A stretch of DNA of 64,000 nucleotides from positions 6,087 to 70,086 of the forward strand of contig CALVCT010000021.1 of the NCBI GenBank assembly GCA_944326055.1. Direction: 5' to 3'. Each line of letters opens with the position of its first letter. The first letter of the stretch is position 1. The notes under the pieces are model-generated. The model saw only the letters and a program-made list of their open reading frames with translations. It made no database searches and was not told the DNA's origin. Of the stretch, positions 3,773 through 50,246 are shown piece after piece. The DNA is from an uncultured Erysipelotrichaceae bacterium. Its GTDB lineage: Bacteria > Bacillota_I > Bacilli_A > Erysipelotrichales > Erysipelotrichaceae. The position numbers and the translations under genes are program-made.

Positions 3773-3804
3773 CTATCGATGCCGCCCATTCAAGATCTAG
3801 GTCA

Positions 3805-3965
3805 CCGATAGCTCCTCTGTCATCAAGACAGGAGTCATAAAGATGTTCTCCTTATGCCCAACTCACTGATGTACCCACCAGTGGTTTCGGCGGTTTGACC
3901 TTTCAGTGTCTTCAACGACTGTCGTCTCCCACACTTACTGATTCGCACCGCGCCTCTATCAACTT
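3805..3965 (-). promoter_or_regulatory. Lysine riboswitch (L-box) aptamer
   Basis: The minus strand reads GATAGAGGCGCGGTGCGAATCAGTAAGTGTGGGAGACGACAGTCGTTGAAGACACTGAAAGGTCAAACCGCCGAAACCACTGGTGGG...CCTGTCTTGATGACAGAGGAGCTATC. The hallmark L-box blocks AGAGGCGC, AGTA, GGGAG, CTGAAAGG, CCGCCGAA and CTGG are present. P1 closes by GATAG/CTATC. Confidence 0.75.
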
Positions 3966-3976
3966 TTACGGGTGCT

Positions 3977-45377: not shown

Positions 45378-46613
45378 ATGGATCACAAAAGAAGACGTGA
45401 AAGACTGTGTGAAGTCCTTAAAGATGGCGAAGTCATCCTGATCTTTTCAGGAAAGAGCCCAATGTGCTCAGAAGATGAAGCTTATCCTTTCTCTGTCGAT
45501 CGCAATTTCTATTATCTGACAGGCATCGATCGCGAAGCGATGGTGCTCTGCCTCTATAAGACGAATGGTCAAGTGCGCGAGACGATGTTTATCGAGCCAT
45601 ATGATGAACTGATGGCTAAGTGGGTCGGACCAAAACTGAAAAGCGATGAAGTCAAGGAGATCAGCGGTGTCCAAAACGTCATGTATCTTGATGAGCTCAA
45701 GCCTTTCATCAACCGTATCAATACCTATGATCAATCATACTCACATATGAGCGTCTACCTTGATCTGTGGCGTTATGAATTTGATCAGCAGGCAAGTGAA
45801 GCTGAGAAGTTTGCTGATCATCTCAAAGCGACTTATCGCGATGTAGAGATCAAAGATATCCGTGGCACTATCGCTAAGATGCGTATGATCAAGGATGCCG
45901 ATGAGATAGAAGAGATCAAGAAAGCGATCGCTATAACGAAAGATGGCGTCGAAGCCATGATGCGTTTCATGCGTCCGGGTATCAATGAGATGGTCATCGA
46001 TAAAGTCTTTGATCTGACATTAGCGACAAGAGGTTGCCAAAAGGTAGCTTTCAAGACGATAGCTGCTGGTGGTCAAAGAGCGACGACTCTCCACTATAGT
46101 GATAATGATCAAGTTCTTGAAGATGGAACGCTCTTCTTGTGTGATCTTGGAGCGACATCAAAACTCTATTGCGCTGATATATCTCGCACTTTCCCTGTAA
46201 ATGGCAAGTTCACAGCTCGTCAAAAAGAGATCTATGATGCTGTTTTGAGCGCTCAAAAACTAGTCACATCTTTAGCGAGACCAGGCGTGACGATACGCGA
46301 ACTCAACGACGCCGTCAAAGAGCATTATCGTAAGTTACTACCAGAACTTCATCTTACTGGCGAAGTCGAAGACTATTATTTCCATGGGATCGGTCACCAT
46401 CTAGGACTCGATACACACGACATAACGAATGTTGAACTATCGAAACTTGAGCCAGGTATGGTCATCACTAATGAGCCAGGTCTCTATATAGCTGAGGAGG
46501 GCATCGGTATCAGGATCGAAGATGATCTATTGATCACAGAAGATGGCTGTATCGATCTAGCTTGCGACCTTCCACATACGACAGAAGAGATCGAAGCTCT
46601 TATGAAGCGCTAG
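45378..46613 (+). CDS. Xaa-Pro aminopeptidase (M24B, PepP/YqhT-like)
   Basis: 411 aa. Motifs FLCDLGATSKLYCADISRTF, HGIGHHLGLDTHD, VITNEPGLY and IRIEDDLLIT. GGAGGA RBS. Confidence 0.85.
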   Translation: MDHKRRRERLCEVLKDGEVILIFSGKSPMCSEDEAYPFSVDRNFYYLTGIDREAMVLCLYKTNGQVRETMFIEPYDELMAKWVGPKLKSDEVKEISGVQNVMYLDELKPFINRINTYDQSYSHMSVYLDLWRYEFDQQASEAEKFADHLKATYRDVEIKDIRGTIAKMRMIKDADEIEEIKKAIAITKDGVEAMMRFMRPGINEMVIDKVFDLTLATRGCQKVAFKTIAAGGQRATTLHYSDNDQVLEDGTLFLCDLGATSKLYCADISRTFPVNGKFTARQKEIYDAVLSAQKLVTSLARPGVTIRELNDAVKEHYRKLLPELHLTGEVEDYYFHGIGHHLGLDTHDITNVELSKLEPGMVITNEPGLYIAEEGIGIRIEDDLLITEDGCIDLACDLPHTTEEIEALMKR

Positions 46614-47445
46614 ATCTTAATTTATAGACGACGATCTCACTATCACTTAAGAAGCGGGCATCGAAATATGTGGTGCCAACACCATTAGTGACATGTAAGA
46701 GAGAGTCGTCTTTTTTGTATGTCCCTTTGAAATATTTCTTAGCACCATTTGGGCGATAGAAGTCATTTATGATAGGTAGATAGATTTGACCACCATGCGA
46801 ATGCCCCGCAAACATCAGGTCTGTAGTCACTTCATCGAAGACATCGGGTGTATGACATAGGGTGATCGTAAAATCTGAACTATCGATGGCACTGTAAGCT
46901 TTTTTTACATCAGGTGATCCTAAGATCATCGATGCGACACCAACGATATTGATATAACTACCATCTTTATAGACCAAAGACGAGCTGTTGTCTAATACCT
47001 CAAAGCCAGAGCTCTCTAAGATATCGACAGCGTTGTCATGCATGGCTTTGGAGCCTAGATCATGATTTCCAAGTACAGCAAACTTTCCAAAACGCGCCTT
47101 TATCGAATTAAGATCTTCGATGATCTTCGCTCTTTCATCGCTTGCAAATTCATAATTATCACTGTCATCGAAAAGATCCCCTCCAAACAAGACGATATCC
47201 GGATCAAAACTAGTGATAGTATCTGCTAGCTTTTCTAACTCAGCTTCTTTTATCGCAGTCCCGTAATGTAAGTCGCTGAAGAAGACGATAGTCATACCAT
47301 CAAGTGCAGTATCTACTTTATCTGATGTATAAGTATTCTCGGATACTGTCAGGACTTTGATGTTGACATAGAAGACGTTGTAGGCGATAAGAAGTATAAG
47401 TATTAAGATACATAATAGTATCATGACGATCTTTTTTGTACTCAT
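46600..47445 (-). CDS. Membrane-anchored metallophosphoesterase (calcineurin-like, YkuE-type)
   Basis: 281 aa with an N-terminal TM helix and motifs FSDLHYG, GGDLFD, VLGNHD and AGHSHGGQ. Confidence 0.8.
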   Translation of the reverse strand: MSTKKIVMILLCILILILLIAYNVFYVNIKVLTVSENTYTSDKVDTALDGMTIVFFSDLHYGTAIKEAELEKLADTITSFDPDIVLFGGDLFDDSDNYEFASDERAKIIEDLNSIKARFGKFAVLGNHDLGSKAMHDNAVDILESSGFEVLDNSSSLVYKDGSYINIVGVASMILGSPDVKKAYSAIDSSDFTITLCHTPDVFDEVTTDLMFAGHSHGGQIYLPIINDFYRPNGAKKYFKGTYKKDDSLLHVTNGVGTTYFDARFLSDSEIVVYKLRSSAS

Positions 47446-47483
47446 GGGTATATCGTACCATAGTTATCAAGTTCAGCAATCAC

Positions 47484-47648
47484 ATTATTTTACATATTTA
47501 CACGAAACTTAGAATATAAGTCCTGAGTATGATATAGACGTAAGGTCGATATAGCCTTACAAGTACAGACCCCCTTAGTACGAATATTCTATCCCCCAAA
47601 TATATCAAGGAAACATAGGCTCCACATAATTAGGAGCCTTTCTTATCG
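47484..47648 (+). ncRNA. Candidate C-rich small RNA, unit A of a tandem pair
   Basis: Hairpin GTAAGG-9 nt-CCTTAC (47540-47560). Unpaired CCCCC runs at 47570-47574 and 47593-47597. Terminal hairpin AGGCTCC-9 nt-GGAGCCT (47617-47639) followed by TTCTT. The 5' boundary is uncertain. Confidence 0.3.
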
Positions 47649-47659
47649 TATATGGAGCT

Positions 47660-47831
47660 GTTCACATAACTTCACATATTTGTCTAATATTTTGACTACA
47701 AGCCTAAGTTATCATATGCATGCAAGGTAGATAAAGACCTTGTGAAAAACTAAAGCATATTCTATCCCCCTTAAAAACTATTTACCCCAAAAACAATGGC
47801 TCCGCGATAATGGAGCCTCTTTTATTTTTTT
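47660..47831 (+). ncRNA. Candidate C-rich small RNA, unit B of a tandem pair
   Basis: Collinear with unit A. Hairpin CAAGGT-8 nt-ACCTTG (47723-47742), CCCCC at 47766-47770, CCCC at 47785-47788, and a strong terminator. Possible promoter TTCACA-18-TAATAT (47661-47690). Confidence 0.35.
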
Positions 47832-48344
47832 ATAGAAGTAAACGATAGGTTCGACGATATCGGTGTAAGTCAGATATCTTTCGATCAGCTGATAGGGACT
47901 ATGGTCAAGATATCTGATAGTCTTCACATATTCATCAAGACCGCCTTTATGGCCACGATAGAAGATGATCGAGACGATAGCTCCATCATTTAAAAGTGGA
48001 AAGAGCTTTTTTAAAGACTCGATCGTCGATGCTGCTTGGGTGATAACAGTACTGGCACTGTTTGGTAGATAACCAAGATTGAACATAGCGACATCGATCT
48101 TTTCTTCGATATAGCTATCGATAGTAGCGTGATCATCATTTATGAAGGTGATATTTGAGAAGTCTTTTGTGCGCTCTCTTGCAATATCGATAGCTTCTTT
48201 TTGGATATCGAAACTGTAGACTTTTTTAAGATAGCGTGCTAAGAAAGCTGTGTCATTTCCTTTACCACAAGTCATATCGACACCCACCTTGTCTTTTGAT
48301 AGTAAAGGCTTTAGATACTTATGGCAATAAGTCAGCGCTTTCAT
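47778..48344 (-). CDS. ytqB: Class I SAM-dependent methyltransferase, YtqB/MnmM-like (tRNA mnm5s2U pathway)
   Basis: 188 aa, collinear with B. subtilis YtqB: VDMTCGKGNDTAFLA, FDIQKEAI, FNLGYLPNSASTVIT, YRGHKGG. Lies downstream of a ytqA-type radical SAM gene. Confidence 0.75.
   Translation of the reverse strand: MKALTYCHKYLKPLLSKDKVGVDMTCGKGNDTAFLARYLKKVYSFDIQKEAIDIARERTKDFSNITFINDDHATIDSYIEEKIDVAMFNLGYLPNSASTVITQAASTIESLKKLFPLLNDGAIVSIIFYRGHKGGLDEYVKTIRYLDHSPYQLIERYLTYTDIVEPIVYFYKKIKEAPLSRSHCFWGK
47798..47831. terminator. Bidirectional rho-independent terminator (unit B on plus, ytqB on minus)
   Basis: GGCTCC-GCGATAAT-GGAGCC followed by TCTTTTATTTTTTT on the plus strand and by TTGTTTTTGGGG on the minus strand. 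It overlaps the last codons of the minus-strand methyltransferase ORF. Confidence 0.7.
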
Positions 48345-49896: not shown

Positions 49897-50044
49897 AAAG
49901 ATCGCTTCATCTATCATTAAGATCCTCAAGCTTTATGATACAAGTAGATCTCTACCTTGATGCAATAACTAAGATGAGATCTAAAAAGAATAAGTGAAGA
50001 CATTTTCATTGATTTTATAGGGTAAAATCAGTATCATGATGAAG

Positions 50045-50246
50045 TGATCGTCAAAAGTAGTAGATAGTCAAAGCTTATAGAGAGCTCTTGTTTGGTGTAA
50101 AAGAGCAGTGTCATCTATCGAACTCGTTTGACATATAGATCGACCGCTGATCAGCGATAACGATGAAGAGTGCACATATGTCAATTCATATGTGAATTAA
50201 GGTGGTAACGCGTTTCTGACGTCCTTAAGTAGGGCGTTTTTATTTT
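50045..50246 (+). promoter_or_regulatory. T-box leader with a Leu (CUC) specifier, controlling leuS
   Basis: Stem I base GTCAAA/TTTGAC, AGTA box, AGAGA bulge and distal loop GGTGTAA. Specifier loop GAA-CTC-G (CTC at 50123-50125). T-box sequence AATTAAGGTGGTAACGCG (50196-50212). Terminator ACGTCCT-TAAGT-AGGGCGT plus TTTTTATTTT (50219-50246). Confidence 0.8.

Follow-up and report, generated by a model that had tools for sequence, protein, structure and literature searches.

Sibling small RNAs (sRNAs) with C-rich anti-Shine-Dalgarno (anti-SD) sequences are well known in Bacillota, and the RNAs described here are therefore ordinary in kind. RoxS/RsaE of the Bacillales is a single-copy, trans-acting sRNA of ~100 nt that pairs with SD sequences through several unpaired C-rich regions; its hallmark is a 10-nt duplication, CCCCUUUGUU (CRR1/CRR3), and its conserved response-regulator site of 8 nt lies far upstream, at approximately −65 (PMC4409812). 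In Listeria monocytogenes, LhrC1-5 are multicopy, partly tandem, G-poor sibling sRNAs of ~110 nt, in which three redundant C-rich (UCCC-type) sites are located in loop A, a stretch that is single-stranded and the loop of the terminator; they are driven by LisR of the envelope-stress two-component system LisRK, with an induction element upstream of −53, and block translation at the SD (PMC4132741). The streptococcal csRNAs (ccnA-E), driven by CiaR, are present in 2-6 sibling copies per genome and possess an unpaired region between two stem-loops that complements the SD and the start codon; their promoters, devoid of a −35 element, have a direct repeat of hexamers as the site of an OmpR-family regulator, the CiaR box TTTAAG-N5-TTTAAG, at 10 nt from the −10 (PMC3091779). 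A full-text literature search for C-rich small RNAs of the Erysipelotrichaceae found no regulatory small RNA described for this family.

In the genome of an uncultured Erysipelotrichaceae bacterium (G000; 1.38-Mb assembly, 98.5% complete), we analyzed a stretch of DNA of 64 kb, referred to below as the window, in which two C-rich units, A and B, resemble each of these systems in part. With RoxS/RsaE, the predicted RNAs share the size of ~100 nt and the unpaired C-rich regions (two C runs per RNA in both A and B, unpaired in the folds, as the original prediction had stated), as well as a putative, though different-looking, regulator box far upstream, at −61 to −42; they differ in being multicopy, in their hairpin layout and in belonging to Erysipelotrichaceae instead of Bacillales. 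With LhrC, they have in common a length of ~110 nt, several siblings per genome (two in G000), a partly tandem arrangement, a G-poor composition and, in part, the redundant C-rich sites, which fall in a loop and the linker in unit A and twice in the linker in unit B. A C-rich terminator loop is found in several relatives (L019, L046, L047, L059, L062 and L064), while the terminator loops of units A and B in the window are not C-rich. The differences from LhrC are the absence of sequence or covariance-model similarity, the conserved core (AUUCUAUCCCCUUA) and the box, which is TCACAT-N4-TCACAT here, no LisR consensus having been defined. The likeness to the csRNAs extends to the copy number, the promoters without a −35 element, the hexamer direct repeat and, in unit B, an unpaired region between two stem-loops with a CAU-N7-CCCCC arrangement; the box, in contrast, is TCACAT-N4-TYACAT at 32 nt from the −10, with a near-CiaR geometry only at htrA and at a second sRNA type, the anti-SD sequence is CCCC and not CCUCC, and an anti-start CAU located 4-10 nt 5′ of the C run occurs in only 14 of 48 units family-wide.

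Searches with Rfam 15, including RsaE (RF01820), LhrC and csRNA, revealed no match in positions 47350-47950 at E ≤ 10, nor was there an Rfam match in the loci of 10 relatives (E ≤ 1 for RF01820). Moreover, the CCCCUUUGUU duplication is absent from both units, in which the C runs are followed by UUAGUAC, AAAUAU, UUAAAAA and AAAAAC. Thus, the RsaE/RoxS style attributed to the units by the original prediction does not amount to membership. Since no model matches and both the core motif and the box differ, membership of LhrC, the csRNAs and RsaE/RoxS fails, and the RNAs are a new family of a known kind. Our reading of the locus, to which we assign a probability of about 65%, is that it harbors two sibling plus-strand sRNA genes, each with its own promoter and terminator, which would act by an anti-SD mechanism under the control of a stress-type activator.

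Anatomy and conservation of the two units

Units A and B are collinear, lie on the plus strand and occupy the 332-nt spacer (47446-47777) between a phosphoesterase gene and a ytqB-like gene, with unit B running into the ytqB-like ORF (Table 1). They align with 73% mean column identity and share an identical C-rich stretch, the 14-mer ATATTCTATCCCCC, which has exactly two occurrences in the 64 kb (47584 and 47757); the chance expectation, even at ≤2 mismatches, is 0.41 matches. The collinearity and the identical stretch had been recognized in the original prediction. The core AUAUUCUAUCCCCC is invariant in both sRNAs. The length of ~165-170 nt that had been proposed for each unit does not hold for the RNA: a unit appears to be composed of ~55 nt of promoter followed by ~107 nt of RNA. 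At the end of each unit, the GC hairpin and its T tail were found as described, and an intrinsic terminator scan revealed two terminator-like sites versus 0.2 expected.

The 3′ end of the ytqB-like gene overlaps the sRNA B terminator. This terminator had also been thought to serve the convergent ytqB gene; the ORF, however, does not stop ahead of it but continues through the hairpin, with its stop codon at 47778-80. The terminator hairpin of sRNA B and the sequence flanking it encode the last ~17 codons of the ORF (EAPLSRSHCFWGK, 47778-47831). As the methylase domain stops before this tail, it may be an accidental extension. The only Rfam 15 families detected in the window at the gathering score are a T-box leader (50044-50229, plus strand, 102 bits) and a lysine riboswitch (3801-3966, minus strand, 84 bits), both ordinary.

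Table 1 Coordinates of the annotated and predicted features (window positions unless a contig is given)
Feature	Position	Strand	Remarks
Membrane-anchored calcineurin-like phosphoesterase gene	46600..47445	−	Divergent from sRNA A; Pfam PF00149
Putative regulator box of sRNA A	47480..47499	+	TCACATTATT-TTACATATTT; direct repeat, 10-bp period, ~−61 to −42
Predicted −10 box of sRNA A	47528..47533	+	TATGAT; aligned TAnnnT
Predicted sRNA A	47540..47646	+	~107 nt; fold z −2.9
sRNA A hairpin 1	47540-47560	+	7 bp; GTAAGG/CCTTAC
sRNA A hairpin 2	47563-47581	+	4 bp, GUAC/GUAC; 11-nt loop holding CCCCC (47570-74)
sRNA A single-stranded core	47584-47597	+	AUAUUCUAUCCCCC; C run 47593-97
sRNA A terminator	47617-47639, tail to 47646	+	Intrinsic; followed by TTCTTAT
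Putative regulator box of sRNA B	47662..47681	+	TCACATAACT-TCACATATTT; kept in B-type units of the genus
Predicted −10 box of sRNA B	47710..47715	+	TATCAT; aligned TAnnnT
Predicted sRNA B	47722..47831	+	~105-110 nt; folded from predicted 5′ end
sRNA B hairpin 1	47722-47743	+	GCAAGGT/ACCTTGT
sRNA B unpaired stretch (54 nt)	Core 47757-47770	+	GCAUAUUCUAUCCCCC; C runs 47766-70 and CCCC 47785-88
sRNA B terminator	47798-47817, U tail to 47831	+	From intrinsic terminator scan
ytqB-like putative rRNA methylase gene	47778..48344	−	Convergent with sRNA B; Pfam PF06962
htrA promoter of G000	C53:1544-1600 (L085)	−	TTTCACttacaTTTCACA 7-8 nt upstream of TATAAT
Candidate of second sRNA type	G000:C12:11374-11495 = L115:1506-1627	+	TCACAT-N5-TCACAT-N10-CATAAT

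An important question is whether selection acts on the RNA structure, as had been argued from a single compensatory U:A to C:G swap in hairpin 1. When 51 units (49 distinct) were aligned under guidance of the model, helix 1 proved to be 97% paired, with compensatory changes at four of six pairs, with variants that include GUAAGG/CCUUAC, GCAAGG/CCUUGC, ACAAGG/CCUUGU, GUAAGC/GCUUAC and GCAAGA/UCUUGC. The swap between units A and B is real and is the commonest compensatory change across the family (UA in 24 and CG in 21 of 49 sequences). Helix 2 is more variable (63% paired in the alignment), with double changes at all five of its pairs. None of 500 shuffles reached the covariation score, and pairing decreased from 82% to 32-43% when the helix partners were slid as a control, which bears out the claim of selection on structure. 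For 43 complete RNAs, the unpaired probability amounts to 0.89 in the conserved core versus 0.48 over the entire RNA; runs of C ≥ 4 number 1.67 per RNA and are 95% unpaired, and runs of G ≥ 4 number 0.07 per RNA. The G-U pairs do not discriminate the strand (21 G-U cells versus 17 A-C cells), and the probable plus-strand orientation is drawn from the promoter and T-tail orientation only, concordant in 43-51 of the 51 units; a strict hairpin with a same-strand T tail is present in 43 of them. In the congener G010, the B-type unit (L016:620-931, minus strand) is ~180 nt long and contains three additional C runs: past the core follow an additional hairpin that carries CCCCC in its loop, a further CCCCC and a terminator whose loop contains CCC.

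The search in relatives recommended by the original prediction proved positive. Homologues were identified in 8 of 10 congeners, mostly as an A-type and a B-type unit in tandem and in the same order, indicating that the duplication is older than the genus and that both copies have been retained. With R1, a covariance model of promoter plus RNA, full-length matches were obtained in 115 of 151 family genomes, representing 73 of 83 genera, at one to four or more copies per genome and often in tandem arrays; a search with an exact anti-seed 12-mer found further sRNA copies that R1 had missed. In a sample of the order, R1 matched 41 of 60 genomes of its own family and, weakly, 8 of 59 of a sister family. 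The weak matches in this sister family (f3; G166, G182, G187 and others) reach 42-46 bit over ~90 nt in two genera and may represent a branch of the sRNA family that has diverged. The order phosphoesterase-sRNA-ytqB is kept only in the genus of this genome and a few nearby genera. Outside the genus, the neighbors differ, and in more cases the gene downstream is convergent than co-oriented; such varied contexts point to free-standing genes and not to leaders.

In the congener G005 (L013, L023; contig C5:20239-26442), the two units lie ~6 kb apart instead of ~60 nt, the pair being split by an insertion. In G000 itself, BLAST revealed no extra copies; a probable decayed third copy is located at a contig end (G000:C58:48560-48710, minus strand), where a TCACAT-N4-TTACAC box is followed, at exactly 38 nt from the second repeat, by a TATAAA −10 and by only ~30 nt of RNA (UUUUACCCCUCAUUUUUUU) without the 5′ hairpin.

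Promoter architecture and predicted 5′ ends

The sRNA promoters follow a common plan, in which a TCACAT-N4-TYACAT direct repeat is followed by a fixed 32-nt gap, a TAnnnT −10, 6 nt and hairpin 1. In the 49 distinct family units, the box columns T4, C5, A6, C7, A8, T9, A16, C17 and A18 are conserved at 84-100%, and the second repeat varies as T(T/C)ACA(T/C) across the aligned units. In a genome-wide matrix scan, the box of sRNA B was the top two-half-site match of the genome (score 26.7), and that of sRNA A was among the best-scoring sites. TAnnnT is found at the same aligned position in all 51 units (38 sources), with 6 nt to hairpin 1 in nearly all of them; a pyrimidine precedes the hairpin, which itself begins with G or A. 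An upstream-repeat alignment of 19 units extends over ~60 nt without indels, though much of the stretch is poorly conserved, a combination that indicates promoter geometry and not RNA.

The 5′ ends are predicted from promoter geometry only: because the arrangement of box, −10 and hairpin is conserved across the units, +1 was set at G47540 for sRNA A and at G47722 for sRNA B. With these starts, two elements of the original description fall in the promoter. ACATATTT, taken to be the start of each unit, is actually the second half of the conserved promoter box; the block AAG(T/C)CCT(G/A)AGT does exist, but it is inexact in unit B (AAGCCTAAGT), occupies the promoter spacer and is not conserved in relatives. 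Likewise, the promoter suggested for unit B, TTCACA-18-TAATAT, has to be replaced, as TTCACA constitutes one half of the regulator box, and the −10 conserved among the units corresponds to TATCAT. We also considered a −10 at 17 nt past the second repeat, with the box as a −35 substitute; it was rejected because the B-type units have no −10-like hexamer there and the invariant TAnnnT lies 32 nt downstream.

No −35 hexamer was found in the sRNA promoters. Column statistics revealed two weaker phased (C/G)ATA elements between the box and the −10; when the 3′ CATA of the strong half-sites is counted, four such elements begin at alignment columns 7, 17, 28 and 39, and the last ends ~10 nt upstream of the −10. 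Given the missing −35 hexamer, we propose that transcription would need an activator bound to the phased TCACAT repeats at −61 to −42, which may also contact the two weaker (C/G)ATA sites reaching the −35 region. The phased layout of these putative half-sites is as expected for cooperative binding by an activator of the OmpR/PhoB type, and a response regulator of this type is the most likely candidate.

Predicted mode of action and alternative explanations

The C-rich core is complementary to a G-rich SD followed by an A/U-rich spacer, and it would pair with G-rich SD regions in the mRNAs that it targets. Unit B, like every B-type unit of the genus, has a CAU 7 nt 5′ of the C run, so that GCAUAUUCUAUCCCCC is the antisense of GGGGG-N7-AUG; for this reason, the core of sRNA B would additionally pair with the start codon. 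Unit A is anti-SD only. Such pairing would be expected to prevent the initiation of translation, in the manner of LhrC, the csRNAs and RsaE/RoxS. Since the target searches gave no conserved target, we infer this block of ribosome-binding sites from the anatomy of the RNAs and from the characterized analogues (PMC4132741, PMC3091779, PMC4409812).

Target prediction at SD regions, which the original prediction had called for, did only modestly better than shuffled seeds. When duplexes were ranked against ~1,065 start regions of G000, many sites comprising an SD plus AUG ranked at the top, but the excess was modest, with a top-20 mean of −18.4 kcal/mol versus −14.0 to −16.9 kcal/mol for the shuffled seeds. 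No theme unites the best-ranked candidates, which include an ABC ATPase, a DASS-type transporter and a small flavodoxin-like protein. Across 151 family genomes, the exact anti-seed 12-mer AAGGGGATAGAA yielded ~167 matches versus ~30 for the control, yet no conserved target; 20 matches sampled off the R1 sites were opposite-strand sRNA-like copies, sites within genes or of unclear nature, and two unrelated ribosome-binding sites.

Do these features necessarily define a distinct family of pairing RNAs? The similar size, the several unpaired C runs, a CCCCUU-type motif and a conserved upstream element at approximately −60, near −65 in RoxS (PMC4409812), would also be expected if the units were orthologues of RsaE/RoxS, the conserved C-rich Bacillales sRNA under the control of ResD/SrrA and Rex. 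We regard such orthology as very improbable: apart from the missing RF01820 match and CCCCUUUGUU duplication, the 5′ hairpin here has no C-rich loop, and a multicopy tandem family stands against the single-copy RsaE. A role of genuine RNAs mainly as decoys (sponges) for proteins or other RNAs, and not as direct blockers of ribosome-binding sites, is unlikely in view of the extended complementarity of the core to the SD and spacer (and to AUG in the B-type), which fits direct pairing, and of the closest characterized analogues, which act via pairing (PMC4132741, PMC3091779). No known global regulator that binds C runs is implicated either, even though the C-rich sites are redundant within the RNA and across siblings, some relatives (e.g., G010) have more C runs, and the predicted targets are weak and diffuse, all of which speaks for a sponge.

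Two further explanations dispense with a functional free-standing RNA. The original prediction had itself named a minus-strand 5′ UTR of the phosphoesterase gene as the alternative; in a broader form, the units would be a cis element on that strand, serving the phosphoesterase gene as its 5′ leader or as an antisense element, or else ytqB as a 3′ element. The G-U counts are compatible with it, no recognizable phosphoesterase promoter is present in the 35 nt before the box, and the gene order is retained in this and a few nearby genera. Nevertheless, it is quite unlikely, as the units sit in other gene contexts in most genera, the −10, regulator box and T tails are plus-oriented in 43-51 of 51 units, and the minus strand would give G-rich hairpins after A runs, without a promoter. 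That adjoining units with 73% identity arose by chance, as a neutral local duplication or as the remnant of a mobile repeat without function, is effectively refuted by conservation and covariation: the A-type and B-type are separately kept across the genus, the family spans 73 of 83 genera, and compensatory changes are frequent. Moreover, terminal inverted repeats are lacking, and the genome contains only two full copies and one decayed copy. Two paralogous, independently terminated, plus-strand C-rich sRNAs of the anti-SD kind, as originally predicted, are the best reading of the locus.

The TCACAT box at htrA and a candidate second sRNA type

TCAYNT-N5-TCACAT-like boxes also precede htrA in many family genomes; in G000, the htrA promoter reads TTTCACttacaTTTCACAttaacagtTATAAT. 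The htrA box was first found via direct inspection and a regular-expression scan. Its enrichment was assessed with a half-site matrix derived from the sRNA boxes only, by comparing the 180 nt upstream of htrA with ~41 control windows of the same locus: the htrA window outscored all controls in 11 of 28 family genomes and was in the top 5% in 15 of 28. With a 22-nt matrix of fixed 10-bp spacing, only the two sRNA promoters scored high in G000, and a second sRNA type became visible to the matrix scan once 11-bp spacing was allowed.

The candidate of this second type, an RNA of ~82 nt with an unpaired CUCUCC, a strong terminator and a fold z of −3.3, looks unrelated to the A/B family; its box, geometry and body are kept in the congener G005 (L116:1503-1625). 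The 3′ 60 nt of the candidate, including the terminator, are repeated 2 kb downstream with 98% identity (C12:13402-13461, plus strand), which resembles a duplication of the target-site type on either side of an inserted segment.

At both htrA and the second sRNA, the half-sites form TCAYNT-N5-TCACAT just upstream of the −10. Because the half-site is common to htrA and the second sRNA, the sRNAs would probably form the RNA arm of a regulon for envelope or secretion stress. The promoter classes differ in that the sRNAs A and B have N4 and 32 nt to the −10, while htrA and the second sRNA have N5 and 7-10 nt; one regulator for all TCACAT-box promoters is likely, though not certain given these differences. 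All eight OmpR-type regulators of G000 score below every NCBIfam equivalog cut-off, and no regulator adjoins the sRNA locus in five complete genomes. In Bacillus subtilis, TTTTCACA octamers make up the CssR sites of htrA and htrB, and CiaR in Streptococcus and LisR in Listeria also control htrA. The proposal that the promoters of the sRNAs, of the second, CUCUCC-type sRNA and of htrA constitute a single response-regulator regulon in Erysipelotrichaceae is tentative, and we rate it somewhat below even odds.

The Erysipelotrichaceae are abundant gut and rumen bacteria, in which this family represents a near-universal multicopy sRNA with a recognizable regulator box. In practice, its model can be used to annotate hundreds of genomes, its promoter motif can guide the search for the proposed stress regulon and the regulator behind it, and it offers a testable parallel to the CiaRH-csRNA and LisRK-LhrC circuits. 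If the single regulon is real, an HtrA-controlling two-component system for envelope or secretion stress would be coupled to multicopy sRNAs directed against ribosome-binding sites here too, the same coupling as in CiaRH-htrA-csRNA of Streptococcus and LisRK-htrA-LhrC of Listeria, and the circuit would represent a design principle of Bacillota that is either ancient or has evolved repeatedly.
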